A stretch of 64,000 nucleotides of DNA, taken from the NCBI GenBank assembly GCA_016181175.1, contig JACOZV010000001.1, positions 182,185 through 246,184 of the forward strand. Reading direction: 5' to 3'. This DNA comes from Candidatus Yanofskybacteria bacterium (GTDB lineage Bacteria; Patescibacteriota; Minisyncoccia; 2-02-FULL-40-12; IGHO2-01-FULL-4-A). The notes below the pieces were generated by a model, which was not told the DNA's origin, searched no databases, and worked only from the letters and a program-made list of their open reading frames with translations. This document shows positions 43,257 to 64,000 of this stretch, piece by piece; position 1 is the first letter of the stretch; each line of letters opens with the position of its first letter. Made by a program: the position numbers and the translations under genes.

Positions 43257-44300
43257 GTGATGGAACTTCTCATGGGAAATAGGATAATTAATGACCGCTC
43301 TCCCTGTTTTGTAATCGCGGAAATTGGCCATAACCACCAGGGTAGTTTGGAGATTTGCAAGCGAATGTTTGAGGCGGCAAAAAGTTGCGATGTGGACGCC
43401 GTAAAGTTGCAAAAAAGAAGCAACCGCGAGCTTTACACCGAACAATTTTACAATTCGCCGTATAATTCAGAAAATGCCTTTGGTCCGACCTATGGGTTGC
43501 ACCGCGAAGCCCTGGAATTGAGCAATGCGGATTATTATGAGCTCAAGCAGTATGCCAAACAACTTGATTTGATTTTCTTCGCGACCGCTTTTGATTTTAC
43601 AAGCGCAGATTTTTTACACGAGTTGGGTATGCCATGTTTTAAAATTGCTTCCGGCGATTTAACCAATACCCCACTGCTTAAGTATGTTGCTAGTTTTGGC
43701 AAACCGATGATAATCAGTACCGGTGCTGCGTTGATGGCAGATGTGGAAAGAGCCTTTGAAGCCGTTATCCCCATCAATAATCAAATAGCCCTGCTCCAGT
43801 GTACGGCGATTTATCCCACCGAGCCTGAAAAACTTGATTTGAACGTAATTGGGACATATTTAAGAAAATTTCCGAAAGCTATTATCGGACTGTCCGACCA
43901 TTATAACGGCATTGCCCTTCCGGTTGCCGCCTACATTTTAGGGGCCAGAATTTTAGAGAAGCACTTTACGCTTAGCCATGCGACAAAAGGCACTGATCAC
44001 GCTTTTTCCATTGAACCGACGGGCATGCGCAGATTGGTCCGCGATTTGAAGCGTACTTATGCCGCGCTTGGAGATGGCACTAAGAATTTTTATCCTGAAG
44101 AAAAACCGGCCCGTTTAAAAATGGGCAAGAAAATTGTTGCCGCCAAAAAGTTACAGGCGGGCCATATTATCGGTAGGGGTGATCTTAATTTCAAGTCGCC
44201 AGGTGATGGTCTTGAACCGTATTATGCCGAAGAATTTTATGGAAAAACATTGAAAGTTTCGCTTAAAAAAGATGAGGCCATAAGTTTTGAACACATTTAA
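43257..44300 (+). CDS. neuB: N-acylneuraminate (nonulosonic acid) synthase with C-terminal SAF domain
   Basis: 'FVIAEIGHNHQGSLEICKRM', 'VKLQKR', 'FKIASGDLTNTPLLKYVA', 'KPMIISTG', plus the SAF tail 'AAKKLQAGHIIGRGDL'. Confidence 0.75.
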   Translation: MMELLMGNRIINDRSPCFVIAEIGHNHQGSLEICKRMFEAAKSCDVDAVKLQKRSNRELYTEQFYNSPYNSENAFGPTYGLHREALELSNADYYELKQYAKQLDLIFFATAFDFTSADFLHELGMPCFKIASGDLTNTPLLKYVASFGKPMIISTGAALMADVERAFEAVIPINNQIALLQCTAIYPTEPEKLDLNVIGTYLRKFPKAIIGLSDHYNGIALPVAAYILGARILEKHFTLSHATKGTDHAFSIEPTGMRRLVRDLKRTYAALGDGTKNFYPEEKPARLKMGKKIVAAKKLQAGHIIGRGDLNFKSPGDGLEPYYAEEFYGKTLKVSLKKDEAISFEHI

Positions 44301-44329
44301 AAAACCCCAAACGGGGTTTTGTTTTGTTT
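44301..44329. terminator. bidirectional terminator between neuB (+) and the aldehyde dehydrogenase gene (-)
   Basis: aaaacccc-aaac-ggggtttt followed by gttttgttt. Confidence 0.65.
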
Positions 44330-45785
44330 AAATTAAATTCAGATCGTATTTTTCGTAAATAGTTTGCCATTCCGAATAAGTATCAAGTGCTTGAGTGCCT
44401 GGTTCGCGCCGGCCGTTGCCGGAATCGCGCAGTCCGCCGAATGGCAGATGCGGTTCACTCCCGCAAGTCGGGCCGTTAATTGAGATCACACCCGCTCTAT
44501 AATGATTTTTGAAATATTCTTTGCGGTTGATGCTATCAGTGTGAATGGCGCCCGTTAGGCCGAACTTAGAGTTATTGGCAAGTACCGTTGCTTCGGATAA
44601 ATCTTTTACTCTAAATAAGCATGTTGCTGGTCCGAACAATTCTTTTTGGGAGATCTGCGTATTGGGTTTTGCTTCTTCAATAATCGTGGGTTCAATATAA
44701 TAACCATTGGGAAATTCTGGATGGTTGAAATGTCGGCCACCGGTTAATATTTTAGCTTTTTCTTCCCAGGCAAGCTGTATATTTTGTAAAATTTGATCGT
44801 GCTGTTTTTGACTGATCACTGGTCCCAAATTATCTTTATCTGTGAACCCTATTTTTAGAGCCAAAGTTTTATCACACATTTTTTGTTTGAATTTTTCGTA
44901 AATTGAATCAAAGACAATAATCCTGCTTGCCGAAGCGCAGCGTTGGCCGGCATTGCTGAATGCCGAAAAAACAGCGCATTCAACCGCCCAATCAATATCA
45001 GCGTCATCGCAAACAACGAGAGGATTTTTACCGCCAAGTTCCAGACAAACTCTGGCAAGTCTTCTGCCGGCCATTTCGGCAATTTCCCGGCCCGCCGTTA
45101 CTGAACCCGTAAAACTGACAAGGTTAACATCATTATTACTAACCAAGAATCTACCCGTTCGAATACCGCCTTGAATTACTGAAAAAACCCCCATTGGCAG
45201 TCCTGCTTCTTTTAATACCTTGGCGAACCATATGGCAGTATAGGGCGTATATTCCGATGGCTTCATAATCACCGTATTTCCACACAGCAATGCCGGAAAC
45301 GCTTTCCAGGCCACATTAGCAATAGGTGTGTTAAAGGAGGTGATTAAAGCGCAAATTCCAATAGGTTGGCGTATGGTGTAGGCAAATCTGTCGGGTATCG
45401 CGCTTGTTGTTGTTTGGCCGTAAAATCGTCTGCCTTCACCGGCGATAAAGTAACCAAGCTCAATGGCGGCTTGTACTTCGCCGCTGGCATCTTTGGGTGA
45501 CTTACCTGTTTCCAGCGCAACAATTTCAATTATTTCTTGTTTGCGAGACTCCATAAGCTGGGTTGCTGTTCTTAAAATTTCGCTCCTTTTAATGACGGAT
45601 ATGCGTGACCAATCTTCAAAAGCCGCTATTGCGGTCATAAAAATTATTTGATGTTCTTTGCCCTCAGCTACCAAACCCAGTTGAGATCCATTCGCTGGAT
45701 TATATTTGGGTAAATATGTTTCTTCATCAGACAGGGCGACCTCATTATCGGCTATCCAATGGTGAATTTTTTCAGGATATTTCAT
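44328..45785 (-). CDS. NAD(P)-dependent aldehyde dehydrogenase
   Basis: 'ELGGKNP' and 'FSNAGQRCASASRIIV' (catalytic Cys region), plus 'GTQALDTYSEWQTI'. Confidence 0.7.
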   Translation of the reverse strand: MKYPEKIHHWIADNEVALSDEETYLPKYNPANGSQLGLVAEGKEHQIIFMTAIAAFEDWSRISVIKRSEILRTATQLMESRKQEIIEIVALETGKSPKDASGEVQAAIELGYFIAGEGRRFYGQTTTSAIPDRFAYTIRQPIGICALITSFNTPIANVAWKAFPALLCGNTVIMKPSEYTPYTAIWFAKVLKEAGLPMGVFSVIQGGIRTGRFLVSNNDVNLVSFTGSVTAGREIAEMAGRRLARVCLELGGKNPLVVCDDADIDWAVECAVFSAFSNAGQRCASASRIIVFDSIYEKFKQKMCDKTLALKIGFTDKDNLGPVISQKQHDQILQNIQLAWEEKAKILTGGRHFNHPEFPNGYYIEPTIIEEAKPNTQISQKELFGPATCLFRVKDLSEATVLANNSKFGLTGAIHTDSINRKEYFKNHYRAGVISINGPTCGSEPHLPFGGLRDSGNGRREPGTQALDTYSEWQTIYEKYDLNLI

Positions 45786-62504: not shown

Positions 62505-63513
62505 TTTTTTGCAAATAGGGTTGGGTTCAATGGGAAAAAGGAGAATACGCAATCTCCTTTTTCACGGCGTTAAAAAAGAGAACATTTTTGGTTTTGATCC
62601 GCGGAAAGACCGTTGCATTGAAGCGAATAAAAAATACGGTATAAACACCCCTAACAGTTTTAAAAAAGCTCTTAAAAAAACCGATGCAGATGCCTACATT
62701 ATTTCATCTCCGCCAGACACGCATTGGCCGTATTTTTTGCATGCTGCCAGGAACAAAAAGCATTTTTTTGTTGAACATCCTACAACGGACCGTGGCTATA
62801 AAGAACTCATGGGCCTTAAGGGCGAAGGTTTCATAATGGCTCCATCATGCACCTTAAGATTTCATCCGGCCGTGAAAATGATAAAAAAAATCATAGGCAA
62901 GAAACAAATAGGTGAAATACTCTCTTTTCAATATCATCTTGGCCAATATTTGCCCTCCTGGCATCCGTGGGAAGATTTTAGAAAAGTGTATTTTTCAAAT
63001 AAAAAGACCGGGGCCTGCCGGGAGATGTTCGCGTTTGAGCTTGGCTGGTTAAGCCATGCTCTAAACCTGCAGAGAGTTTCTAAGGTGTTTGGTTTTACGG
63101 AAAAACTTTCCAATCTTAATATGTCAGCCGACGATGCTTATTCGGCAATTTTAAAGTTTAAAGACAGCGTAATTGGAAATATAGCCGTTGATCTTTTGTC
63201 CAAAAAACCATTTAGAACATTACGGATTATCGGATCAAGCGGAGTTTTACAGTGGGAGTGGCAGGATAATGAAATAAAAGTTTTTGATGCAAAAAATAAA
63301 AATTGGAAGATTTTAAAATTTAAAAAGGGTAAAAGCGAAAGGAACTATGTAACCACAGAAGATATGTATGAAGAAGAAATAGGTTTATTTTTAAAAGCCA
63401 TAGAAGACAAAAAACCATTTCCTTTTACTTTTCAAGAGAATCACCATTTCCTAAAAACATTATTTGCCCTTGAAAAAAGCAGTAAGTTGGGAAAAGTAAT
63501 CTTGGTAAAATGA
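62482..63513 (+). CDS. Gfo/Idh/MocA-like oxidoreductase
   Basis: 'LQIGLGSMGKRRIRNL' Rossmann start and 'YIISSPPDTHW'. The start is moved to an internal Met. Confidence 0.5.
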   Translation: MKNWQNFNFLQIGLGSMGKRRIRNLLFHGVKKENIFGFDPRKDRCIEANKKYGINTPNSFKKALKKTDADAYIISSPPDTHWPYFLHAARNKKHFFVEHPTTDRGYKELMGLKGEGFIMAPSCTLRFHPAVKMIKKIIGKKQIGEILSFQYHLGQYLPSWHPWEDFRKVYFSNKKTGACREMFAFELGWLSHALNLQRVSKVFGFTEKLSNLNMSADDAYSAILKFKDSVIGNIAVDLLSKKPFRTLRIIGSSGVLQWEWQDNEIKVFDAKNKNWKILKFKKGKSERNYVTTEDMYEEEIGLFLKAIEDKKPFPFTFQENHHFLKTLFALEKSSKLGKVILVK

Positions 63514-64000
63514 AGAAAATAAAAATAGGTCATAAAACAATATCTGATAAATTCCCCGTCTTTATAATCGCTGAAGCCGGTGTTAACCACAATGGCCGTC
63601 TTGATTTGGCTTTGAAACTGATAGATGCCGCCGCGGTTTCCGGGGCGGATGCGATTAAATTTCAAACCTTTCGTGCTGAGCAGGTCGTTACTGCCAGTGG
63701 CAAGATGGCTAAATATCAAATAAAAAATCTGGGGGCAAACATAAAACAATTCGCAATGCTAAAAGAACTCGAGTTGAAAGAAAAATATTACCCCGAACTT
63801 GTTAAGCGGGCCAAAAAGAAGAATATCATTTTGTTTTCCACCCCCCACGGTGGACATGAGTCGGTGGATTTTTTGCAATCTTTGAGAATGCCGGCATTCA
63901 AATTTAGTTCTAGTGATTTGACCAACATTCCGCTTCTTCGGTATGCGGCTAAATTTAAGAAGCCCATGATCATAAGTACTGGTATGGCTACTCTTGCCGA
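63510..64000 (+). CDS. NeuB-family nonulosonic acid synthase, paralog 3 (3'-truncated by the window end)
   Basis: Own translation: 'MKKIKIGHKTISDKFPVFIIAEAGVNHNGRLDLALKLIDAAAVSGADAIKFQTF...FKFSSSDLTNIPLLRYAAKFKKPMIISTGMATLA'. This is close to canonical NeuB/PseI. It is absent from the ORF track because it runs off the end of the window. Confidence 0.7.
   Translation, partial: MKKIKIGHKTISDKFPVFIIAEAGVNHNGRLDLALKLIDAAAVSGADAIKFQTFRAEQVVTASGKMAKYQIKNLGANIKQFAMLKELELKEKYYPELVKRAKKKNIILFSTPHGGHESVDFLQSLRMPAFKFSSSDLTNIPLLRYAAKFKKPMIISTGMATLA

Follow-up and report, generated by a model that had tools for sequence, protein, structure and literature searches.

The window analysed here, a 64,000-nucleotide (nt) stretch of contig JACOZV010000001.1, encodes at positions 43257-64000 three apparently intact and distinct pathways for the synthesis and activation of sialic acid-like sugars, lying side by side. 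The host, Candidatus Yanofskybacteria, is a tiny-genome groundwater bacterium of the Parcubacteria, within the Patescibacteria or candidate phyla radiation (CPR) group, and proteins 100% identical to two of the synthases, NeuB1 and NeuB2, are annotated as Candidatus Yanofskybacteria proteins from metagenome-assembled genomes (MAGs). Pfam and NCBIfam scans of the region identified three NeuB-family synthases, three CMP-sugar cytidylyltransferases (CT1 to CT3), a WbuX/HisH/HisF trio, a KdsC-like phosphatase of the haloacid dehalogenase (HAD) type, a DegT aminotransferase and two Gfo/Idh/MocA enzymes. Beyond what was first annotated, the same region encodes an aldehyde dehydrogenase (ALDH), a full-length transketolase (TKT), a short-chain dehydrogenase/reductase (SDR), a radical-SAM/SPASM enzyme, a GmhA-like SIS isomerase and two open reading frames (ORFs) of 443 and 426 amino acids (aa) without Pfam match, named unk443 and unk426. 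Every gene named in a first-pass annotation of this DNA, including the phosphatase, DegT and Gfo/Idh/MocA accessory genes, was recovered from the ORF map and the family scans within about 30 nt of where it had been placed (Table 1).

The three synthases match PF03102 (gathering cut-off 22.1 bits) and follow one another as first annotated, the most upstream with a SAF domain, the second without it and the third, which is partial, being the most canonical. Their pairwise identity is 33-40%, and in a neighbour-joining tree with relatives of known genomic context they fall into three separate clades, each with 100/100 bootstrap support. Catalytic residues were checked by alignment to Neisseria meningitidis NeuB, whose sequence was taken from the PDB alignment and whose numbering is used here. 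The metal, phosphoenolpyruvate (PEP) and catalytic set (E25, K53, Q55, K129, S132, S154, Y186, S213, H215, E234, H236 and D247) is complete in NeuB1 and NeuB2, and among 120 relatives of each synthase at least 119 keep any given position of it. NeuB3 retains all N-terminal residues of the set, the others lying beyond the window edge, and its ortholog in a sister genome has all of them except for a Q55 to E change. On the sugar side, the NeuB1 family carries the changes R314S (115/120), F288K (119/120) and N184A, while the SAF-less NeuB2 family carries T110S, F112W (120/120), E134C/S and N184S/A. R314 is the single conserved substrate-binding residue of the SAF domain (PMC8208679).

All synthases and activators belong to the same two Pfam families, as would be the case if they were redundant recent duplicates or decayed copies making one sugar, or pseudogenes. 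This explanation, which the first-pass annotation had itself raised together with a possible loss of catalytic residues, is nevertheless very improbable and was rejected on account of the divergence, the separate clades and the intact frames and catalytic residues; in addition, orthologs at 61-88% identity are found in other genomes. Judged from their sequences, the paralogs are old and distinct and would serve three non-redundant routes.

The three cytidylyltransferases were likewise borne out by matches to PF02348 (gathering cut-off 22.6 bits), the ORF of the third opening at 61752 with a likely ATG at 61782. CT1 and CT3 are 36% identical and both resemble NeuA structures in the PDB (9ftb, 92 and 108 bits, respectively; NmNeuA 1eyr, 75 and 88 bits). 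CT2 is similar to the other two only across about 70 N-terminal residues; its best PDB match is 6oew, "Cytidylyltransferase" (67 bits), with KdsB structures at about 26 bits. The PseF model TIGR03584 (cut-off 205.7) gave 149.5 bits for CT1, 158.9 for CT3 and 22 for CT2, all below the cut-off, and the KdsB model TIGR00466 (cut-off 155.2) gave at most 37 bits for any of them. The genes are not arranged as three tidy adjacent pairs, contrary to the three synthase/activator pairs first described, and the pairing of synthases with activators is inferred.

Table 1. Genes of the nonulosonic acid region and the adjoining exporter, in window coordinates (aa, amino acids; percentages are protein identities)
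Feature	Position	Strand	Size and evidence
Wzm-like permease of ABC-2 exporter	40904-41761	+	PF01061 ABC2_membrane
Wzt-like ATPase (ORF)	41670-43145	+	PF00005 ABC_tran
NeuB1	43257-44300	+	347 aa; PF03102 250 bits; SAF domain PF08666
ALDH, cassette A	44328-45785	-	485 aa; PF00171 479 bits; 50-60% to cassette ALDHs in L094-L096
TKT paralog, full-length, cassette A	45877-47823	-	648 aa; Transketolase_N, Transket_pyr and Transketolase_C domains
SDR, PRK09186/PtmA-like, cassette A	47798-48628	-	276 aa; adh_short_C2 132 bits; NF006619 154.7 bits
CT1, NeuA-like CMP-ulosonate synthetase	48742-49494	+	250 aa; PF02348 84.5 bits
unk443	49500-50831	+	443 aa; no Pfam match; between CT1 and CT2
CT2, divergent CTP_transf_3 cytidylyltransferase	50824-51603	+	259 aa; PF02348 67.7 bits, full profile
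Gfo/Idh/MocA oxidoreductase, module B	51632-52642	-	336 aa; PF01408 and PF22725; 80% in sister genome, beside the radical-SAM gene
Radical-SAM/SPASM enzyme, module B	52650-53840	-	396 aa; PF04055 and PF13186; 87% in sister genome
KdsC/YrbI-family HAD phosphatase	54029-54601	+	190 aa; sole such gene found in the window
DegT/LegC-like pyridoxal phosphate-dependent aminotransferase, module B	54657-55889	-	410 aa; PF01041 252 bits; 89% in sister genome
GmhA-like SIS ketose-phosphate/aldose-phosphate isomerase	56031-56630	+	199 aa; TIGR00441 167 bits (cut-off 209.45)
NeuB2	56775-57725	+	316 aa; PF03102 219 bits; no SAF domain
unk426, orphan	57809-59089	+	426 aa; 3′ of NeuB2 in both genomes
HisF/WbuZ-like cyclase subunit	59046-59852	+	TIGR00735 283.6 bits (cut-off 294.55)
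HisH/WbuY-like glutaminase subunit	59903-60538	+	TIGR01855 214 bits (cut-off 105)
WbuX-family N-acetyl sugar amidotransferase, PP-loop	60535-61779	+	TIGR03573 394 bits (cut-off 203)
CT3, NeuA-like CMP-ulosonate synthetase	61782-62504	+	PF02348 86.5 bits
Gfo/Idh/MocA oxidoreductase	62461-63513	+	350 aa; PF01408 and PF22725; 24% to the sister Gfo at the same place, not an ortholog
NeuB3, N-terminal part	63510-64000	+	163 codons, ended by window edge; PF03102 130 bits

The sister genome is an independently assembled Yanofskybacteria genome (JACPNJ010000005.1, a 339-kb contig; loci L013 and L008), which carries all three modules in the same order as the window. Its genes run GT4, GT2, PMT, Wzm, Wzt, NeuB1, ALDH/TKT/SDR, CT1, unk443 and CT2, then, after five extra genes, HAD, radical-SAM, Gfo, DegT, SIS, NeuB2 and unk426, and finally CT3, Gfo, SDR, NeuB3, NeuC, acetyltransferase, DegT and dehydratase. 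Window and sister proteins are mostly 70-93% identical, with lower values for CT2 (56%) and NeuB3 (65%). Within the window, the GC content is even across the region (0.38-0.43), and the genes are densely packed and often overlap, also across module boundaries. Because the independent genome shares the gene order and the GC content is even, the arrangement is not an assembly artefact. An assembly or binning chimera joining nonulosonic acid (NulO) clusters of different organisms has to be considered for a MAG, but the sister synteny, the even GC and the overlapping genes make it extremely improbable, and it was rejected.

The two genomes also differ in several respects. The WbuX/HisH/HisF trio is found in the window only, placed exactly between unk426 and CT3, and the radical-SAM-Gfo pair is inverted (window 51632-53840 versus L008 5591-7872). 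The third module is the least conserved, given the low identity of NeuB3 and the non-orthologous Gfo. This pattern (trio, inversion and third module) resembles serotype-type variation. Sister-only genes (L008 202-4758) encode His_Phos_1, a 353-aa protein without Pfam match, a second HAD, an SDR and an APH kinase. Upstream of the region, an RmlB-like dehydratase (window 38188-39216) is present in the window only, without counterpart in the sister genome.

The third module, here called route C, is close to a known pathway. The legionaminic acid (Leg) pathway comprises LegB, LegC, LegH, LegG, LegI and LegF (PMC6137143). Of these, the window covers a LegF-like enzyme, CT3, and the 5′ half of a LegI-like gene, while sister locus L008 has all six enzyme types. 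There, NeuB3 is followed by NeuC (NeuC_NnaA 392.6 bits, cut-off 235.9), a hexapeptide acetyltransferase, DegT and a Polysacc_synt_2 4,6-dehydratase, with a PtmA-like SDR upstream, and the sister cytidylyltransferase that is 77% identical to CT3 lies between the unk426 ortholog and this Leg-type operon. NeuB3 appears from its matches to be the most canonical of the three synthases, of the NeuB/LegI type: its best PDB match is Bacillus subtilis SpsE (1vli), the partial protein scores 184 bits over 145/329 positions of the NeuB_NnaB model TIGR03569, and the sister ortholog, with Arg314 present, scores 438.6 bits, above the cut-off of 399.65. NeuB1 (296 bits) and NeuB2 (206 bits) are below it. All three synthases score lower on the PseI model TIGR03586 (cut-off 340.25; NeuB1 233, NeuB2 186, NeuB3 124 bits) than on NeuB_NnaB, and neither the window nor L008 showed a gene of the PseG or PseH type. 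A pseudaminic acid (Pse)-type pathway was rejected for these reasons.

Route C would thus follow the conventional nucleotide-sugar order of 4,6-dehydratase, aminotransferase, acetyltransferase, NeuC-type hydrolysing epimerase, NeuB/LegI synthase and NeuA/LegF activator, and its product would be a 5,7-diamino legionaminic-type NulO. The sister dehydratase and aminotransferase score higher with PseB/PseC than with LegB/LegC models and stay below the cut-off on all of them, so that Leg and an epimer are both compatible with the data. For the window itself, which ends inside NeuB3, the Leg-like product first suggested is overstated, and the Leg-type assignment is taken from sister-genome synteny. 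Within the Leg-type operon of the sister genome lies a gene for a 23S_rRNA_IVP (four-helix-bundle) protein (L008 18710-19081).

The acetamidino trio proposed for this locus proved sound. WbuX and HisH clear their model cut-offs, and the HisF/WbuZ-like protein is just below those of three models (besides TIGR00735, WbuZ TIGR03572, 253 bits for a cut-off of 299.7, and AglZ/HisF2 NF038364, 202 bits). The WbuX ORF opens at 60433, with a likely ATG at 60535 (the profile match starts at residue 45) that overlaps the HisH stop by 4 nt, and with a 50-nt gap between the other two genes the trio is contiguous. Enzymes of the WbuX family make acetamidino derivatives, in Campylobacter (pseA/ptmG-type) at the CMP-sugar stage (PMC5378307). 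The trio would turn one N-acetyl group of the route C sugar into an acetamidino group and, because it stands in the same tightly packed gene run as route C, an acetamidino Leg-type sugar is, by analogy, the most likely product here.

NeuB1 belongs to a different kind of neighbourhood. Relatives 60-70% identical to it occur in Curtissbacteria, Gottesmanbacteria, Vampirovibrio and Chloroflexi, and five loci were sampled (Curtissbacteria, Vampirovibrio, Chloroflexi and two others). All five show the order NeuB(SAF)-HAD-SDR-ALDH-(cytidylyltransferase)-TKT, called cassette A below, one of them without the cytidylyltransferase. NeuB1 orthologs 61-63% identical to the window protein sit inside it in L094-L096, and the same order surrounds the NeuB1-family proteins P0139 (65% to NeuB1) in L097 and P0202 (60%) in L098. 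The HAD gene is adjacent to NeuB in 3/5 loci, one ABC-transporter gene away in L097, and in one locus fused to it, giving a 583-aa NeuB-SAF protein with a KdsC-like HAD (P0240, L094 10001-11752). Another natural fusion, P0126, joins NeuB-SAF to a PF23526 domain. In the window, the ALDH, TKT and SDR genes form one minus-strand block from 48628 to 44328, in which the SDR gene overlaps the TKT start. The TKT (NF004559 394 bits, below the cut-off of 488) and the SDR are 44-56% and 37-46% identical, respectively, to their cassette counterparts in L094-L096. CT1 is 58-60% identical to the cassette cytidylyltransferases of L094 and L095 and is likely the partner of NeuB1.

From its gene order, cassette A looks like a conserved unit moving between phyla. 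No description of a TKT/ALDH NeuB cassette was found in the searchable literature, and this NeuB-HAD-SDR-ALDH-cytidylyltransferase-TKT set is apparently uncharacterised. The link with a HAD and the R314S and F288K changes suggest that NeuB1 takes a phosphorylated substrate, probably one without an N-acetyl group. Route A would thus consist of NeuB1, CT1, SDR, TKT and ALDH, with tailoring by SDR oxidation followed by transamination, or possibly by TKT cleavage and ALDH oxidation. As the cassette order is conserved across distant phyla, TKT, ALDH and SDR would act on the cassette's own intermediates. A role of TKT and ALDH in making glycolyl donors for N-acylation was not adopted, since no ligase or acyltransferase accompanies the cassette in the loci examined.

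The SAF-less NeuB2 is surrounded by a third set of genes. Earlier work grouped such synthases solely as "environmental", with functions yet to be tested (PMC8208679). In Parcubacteria, close relatives of NeuB2 are widespread, and a metagenome scan yielded 80 loci with relatives at 45-56% identity, 72 of them with enough flanking sequence. A KdsC-like HAD gene lies within 300 bp and on the same strand in 42/72 of these, and the order SDR-cytidylyltransferase-HAD-NeuB recurs. The other partners vary, including Gfo, class-III/DegT aminotransferases, methyltransferases, radical-SAM enzymes (a weak homolog of the window enzyme adjoins the SAF-less NeuB in L092), split TKT (L011, L087 and L093) and SIS. 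One protein, P0112 (L007 2511-3971), is a fusion of SAF-less NeuB with SIS and is encoded beside transaldolase and TKT genes. A diversity-generating retroelement-like pair (bAvd and reverse transcriptase) was observed at L005 16954-18357 (Candidatus Sungiibacteriota CP066690.1), about 6 kb from the two NeuB genes of that genome.

In the window, the HAD gene is separated from NeuB2 by 2.2 kb and from NeuB1 by 9.7 kb, and its product belongs to the subfamily of the HADs adjoining SAF-less NeuB genes in L063 and L022. Its best NCBIfam match is the Kdn (2-keto-3-deoxynononic acid)-9-phosphate phosphatase model NF058599 (81 bits, cut-off 180), followed by TIGR01670 (69 bits, cut-off 107), and its PDB matches are YrbI/KdsC proteins and BT1713. 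The DegT aminotransferase of this module scores 211 bits on TIGR04181 (cut-off 420). The SIS protein matches Campylobacter jejuni GmhA (1tk9) with 127.7 bits over about 170 residues and keeps the GmhA motifs GNGGSAA.AQH and IQE.H..H, which marks it, at the level of sequence, as a genuine GmhA homolog. The best PDB match of NeuB2 is 6ncs, a 290-residue chain. Route B would then combine NeuB2, the GmhA-like isomerase, the KdsC-like phosphatase and Gfo, DegT and radical-SAM tailoring (Gfo oxidation, then transamination), with CT2 or CT3 as activator. The gene associations support a core of condensation of a sugar phosphate with PEP, dephosphorylation and CMP activation, and the aldose phosphate may be mannose 6-phosphate (Kdn-type), heptose 7-phosphate (giving a ten-carbon acid) or another.

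The cassette and phosphatase gene links imply phosphorylated substrates for NeuB1 and NeuB2, both of which would be of the phospho-type found in the Kdn and animal pathways, the coupling with a HAD being seen at the family level. In routes A and B, a phosphorylated aldose would be condensed with PEP, after which a KdsC-family HAD would take off the terminal phosphate and the acid thus freed would be activated with CMP. It could be that the products are conventional, NeuB1 or NeuB2 being a plain Kdn-9-phosphate or N-acetylneuraminic acid (Neu5Ac)-9-phosphate synthase, so that Kdn or Neu5Ac is made together with the acetamidino sugar Leg5Am7Ac, while TKT, ALDH, SDR, radical-SAM and SIS enzymes serve precursor supply or other glycan sugars, e.g., heptose. 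The phospho-type pathway is established (PMC6200933, PMC3438082), and the best matches of the window HAD agree with it. SIS genes accompany GDP-heptose genes in L005 and L096, and, in our view, a CPR genome may have to encode such sugar-phosphate enzymes itself. However, the strict cassette order is kept across distant phyla, including organisms expected to have a housekeeping transketolase, two phospho-type synthase families with differing sugar-side residues coexist in one locus, and the HAD stays below the Kdn-9-phosphate phosphatase cut-off. Taken together, conventional products appear rather unlikely.

Another possibility is that at least one route yields an acid other than a nine-carbon NulO, which we regard as unlikely. 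It includes the mechanism preferred for route A, in which the SDR would oxidise the C8 hydroxyl of the NulO after dephosphorylation, creating a HOCH2-CO-CHOH end that would be a stereochemically right TKT donor; TKT would then remove C8-C9 and ALDH would oxidise the new C7 aldehyde to a carboxylate, leaving a 3-deoxy-heptulosaric acid. By our stereochemical reasoning, an 8-keto D-glycero-D-galacto NulO presents the 3S,4R configuration that TKT donors require, and a sensible chemical role is thereby found for each of SDR, TKT and ALDH. For route B, PEP and D-glycero-D-manno-heptose 7-phosphate from a GmhA-like supply would give a ten-carbon acid. The close GmhA homology of the isomerase, its fusion to a SAF-less NeuB in P0112 and the TKT and transaldolase genes beside that fusion, as well as the split TKT genes at other SAF-less loci, are in line with this. 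It is nonetheless pure gene-content logic, SIS adjacency is a minority pattern and the transketolase could equally supply a precursor. To our knowledge, no truncated dicarboxylic or ten-carbon products of this kind have been reported.

The two proteins unk443 and unk426 are best read as putative glycosyltransferases (GTs) for the acids activated by CT1 to CT3, which would transfer the CMP-sugars to glycan. Neither has a Pfam or PDB sequence match, even at E<=10. The unk443 family comprises 1911 unannotated cluster representatives with an invariant Y-R-P, a near-invariant HP (YRPHPW) and an invariant WD within DNWDN; Glyphos_transf PF04464 is matched by 2/40 members, a weak link to the TagF family, and in L095 (Vampirovibrio) a homolog is encoded next to cassette A and a Capsule_synth gene. 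The single-sequence AlphaFold (AF2) model of unk443 was unusable (predicted local distance difference test, pLDDT, 37), and profile-profile comparisons of unk443 with unk426 and with the Capsule_synth protein were not significant, though the HP motifs align. On its motifs, unk443 is a candidate cytidine-nucleotide-dependent, TagF/sialyltransferase-like glycosyltransferase. KpsC/KpsS-type Capsule_synth genes, of the beta-Kdo-transferase family, were found beside NeuB in L002-L004 (7102-8487, Giovannonibacteria) and L095 (8140-9720, Vampirovibrio), which hints that these enzymes may use other CMP-ulosonic acids there.

For unk426, 28 relatives were found, without functional name or Pfam domain, their named sources all being Yanofskybacteria or Paceibacterota. 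AlphaFold with the family alignment gave a confident two-domain model (pLDDT 88.3), and the family has an invariant HP motif; in sialyltransferases, the HP motif binds CMP-Neu5Ac (PMC2169525). On the basis of the model, unk426 is predicted to be a Parcubacteria-restricted GT-B transferase for a CMP-activated ulosonic acid. It differs from the GT-B sialyl-, polysialyl- and beta-Kdo transferases of GT38, GT80 and GT107 (PMC2169525, PMC10148158) in having no detectable sequence-family membership and no evident D/E-D/E-G motif, and in carrying the HP motif in the N-terminal Rossmann domain, whereas it is C-terminal in those enzymes.

Upstream, the window contains at least eight GT4/GT2 glycosyltransferases, PMT_2/TPR proteins and the Wzm/Wzt-type ABC-2 exporter, whose gene pair stops 112 nt 5′ of NeuB1 and is 90-93% identical in the sister genome. 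The 43.2-64 kb segment is thus taken to belong to a surface-glycan island, 50 kb or more in length, and to be the end of it that supplies sugar acids. Taken as a whole, the region would encode three non-redundant routes to CMP-activated 2-keto-3-deoxy sugar acids supplying an exported surface glycan, a reading held with moderate confidence. The conserved gene neighbourhood is a different one for each synthase, so that the best reading, as first proposed, is of several different activated ulosonic acids, the pathways being distinct by divergence and neighbourhood but none of them Pse-like; on a Kdo-like product, also suggested at first, the data speak neither for nor against. Since only one pathway looks textbook, the cell surface probably bears acidic sugars of as yet undescribed structure. 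A further, rather unlikely proposal is that at least one phosphatase-linked route (cassette A or the SAF-less module) makes a structurally new activated sugar acid, which unk426 and unk443, as transferase families not recognised before, would set on the episymbiotic CPR surface; possible products are a side-chain-truncated 3-deoxy-heptulosaric acid, an aminated or deoxygenated Kdn analogue and a ten-carbon acid from heptose 7-phosphate.

Several observations weigh against three separate routes with the roles given above. No NCBIfam equivalog cut-off is reached by NeuB1, NeuB2 or any of the three cytidylyltransferases, and the cytidylyltransferases adjoining SAF-less NeuB genes elsewhere are about equally similar to CT1 and CT3, which leaves the pairing ambiguous. 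The only HAD of the window is not of the cassette A subfamily, so that route A is here without its own phosphatase. For route B, SIS adjoins a SAF-less NeuB in just 5/72 loci, and in L005 and L096 it accompanies GHMP-kinase and NTP-transferase genes typical of GDP-heptose synthesis; the SIS-NeuB2 link could be indirect. NeuB3 is cut by the window edge, the rest of route C being read from a sister genome in which NeuB3 is only 65% identical and the adjoining Gfo not orthologous. The likeness of unk443 to known transferases is statistically weak. Finally, terminators and promoters are not clearly more numerous than in shuffled sequence.

Terminator-like hairpins lie in gaps at 44301-44320, 45859-45878, 51611-51633, 54607-54658 and 56642-56663, the last being strong and directly 3′ of the SIS gene, and the region is thereby broken up into short units. 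Gaps between the genes from NeuB2 to NeuB3 (57.7-64 kb) are free of such hairpins, and this stretch resembles a single long operon. No tRNA or Rfam elements were found in the window. Further upstream, three very large ORFs (8734-12336, 24532-27561 and 4897-8097) may be surface proteins and glycan acceptors; two, of 1200 aa and 1009 aa, have no Pfam match at 1e-4, and the third, of 1066 aa, has a lamin-tail domain and a PQQ-type beta-propeller. Between 13950 and 20946 lie four tandem ORFs of 530-630 aa, one with a PMT_2 domain and three with C-terminal TPR repeats, while a fifth PMT_2 protein (39231-40928) directly precedes the exporter. The five PMT_2/TPR ORFs are an expanded family of membrane glycosyltransferase-like proteins.

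CPR bacteria have genomes of about 1 Mb, presumably live attached to the cells of a host, and have a surface chemistry that is almost unexplored. Full-text literature searches found no paper mentioning nonulosonic acids together with CPR or Patescibacteria. More than 20 kb given to three sialic acid-like pathways, conserved between species, suggests that these sugars are central to the self-presentation of the organism, and the strain-level variation, with an acetamidino trio here and none in the sister genome, adds to this picture. Cassette A and the SAF-less NeuB/phosphatase module are both conserved far beyond CPR and are concrete, cloneable targets for new ulosonic acids and their transferases. 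That two of the three synthases are phosphatase-linked, one of them in a widely conserved TKT/ALDH/SDR cassette, was absent from the first-pass annotation.

Multi-synthase NulO loci, phospho-type synthase/phosphatase pathways and acetamidino modification are already known. What is new is that three routes are combined in a single conserved locus of a reduced CPR genome. Also new are cassette A and the SAF-less module, uncharacterised but widely conserved, and the predicted Parcubacteria-restricted sialyltransferase-like family of unk426. The significance is real but moderate, because every product is inferred. The earlier statement that such a locus is unusual for any genome is too strong, in view of the multi-synthase systems of Leptospira interrogans and Campylobacter jejuni (PMC3438082).

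Compared with the Leg pathway (PMC6137143) and the Leg5Am7Ac systems of Legionella and Campylobacter, route C of the sister genome has the same enzyme types and the window adds the acetamidino trio; of this pathway, the window itself contains no more than the activator, a Gfo and half of the synthase. Phospho-type synthase/phosphatase pathways are found in Bacteroides, Prymnesium and animals (NANS/NANP), and CMP-Kdn of Bacteroides thetaiotaomicron is made by the synthase BT1714, the phosphatase BT1713 and a CMP-Kdn synthetase (PMC6200933). The logic of these pathways, in which NeuB uses PEP and a sugar 6-phosphate, followed by a KdsC-family HAD and NeuA-type activation, matches routes A and B. 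In contrast, the window HAD is below the equivalog cut-off, NeuB1 and NeuB2 have family-specific changes of the sugar site, and the Kdn pathway lacks equivalents of the conserved TKT, ALDH, SDR, Gfo, DegT, radical-SAM and SIS partners.

Campylobacter jejuni has parallel Neu, Leg and Pse pathways (PMC3438082). As here, Campylobacter jejuni/coli combine three NeuB paralogs and three CMP-synthetases in one genome with a WbuX-family acetamidino step (PMC5378307). Unlike Campylobacter, the present locus has no PseI-, PseG- or PseH-type genes, and two of its synthases are of phosphatase-linked types absent from Campylobacter. PtmA-like SDR and Gfo-type genes stand near the Leg genes, as in Campylobacter, where both kinds of gene have roles. 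The Campylobacter genes are spread over lipooligosaccharide (LOS) and flagellar loci and decorate flagellin and LOS, whereas export here looks ABC-transporter dependent.

A parallel in a single cluster is found in Leptospira interrogans, with two synthases and two CMP-synthetases (PMC3438082). That cluster likewise combines several synthases, CMP-synthetases and aminotransferases, and a complete Leg-type pathway with a second, phosphatase-linked synthase, for which a phosphorylated substrate is implied (PMC3438082). The best PDB matches of NeuB2 (6ncs) and CT2 (6oew) resemble accessory enzymes of the Leptospira kind. Several NulO species have been detected biochemically in Leptospira (PMC3438082). 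The Yanofskybacteria locus differs in having three synthases and three activators instead of two each, a phosphatase that is a separate KdsC-type HAD, additional TKT/ALDH/SDR and radical-SAM/GmhA-like genes, and a CPR host in place of a spirochaete pathogen.

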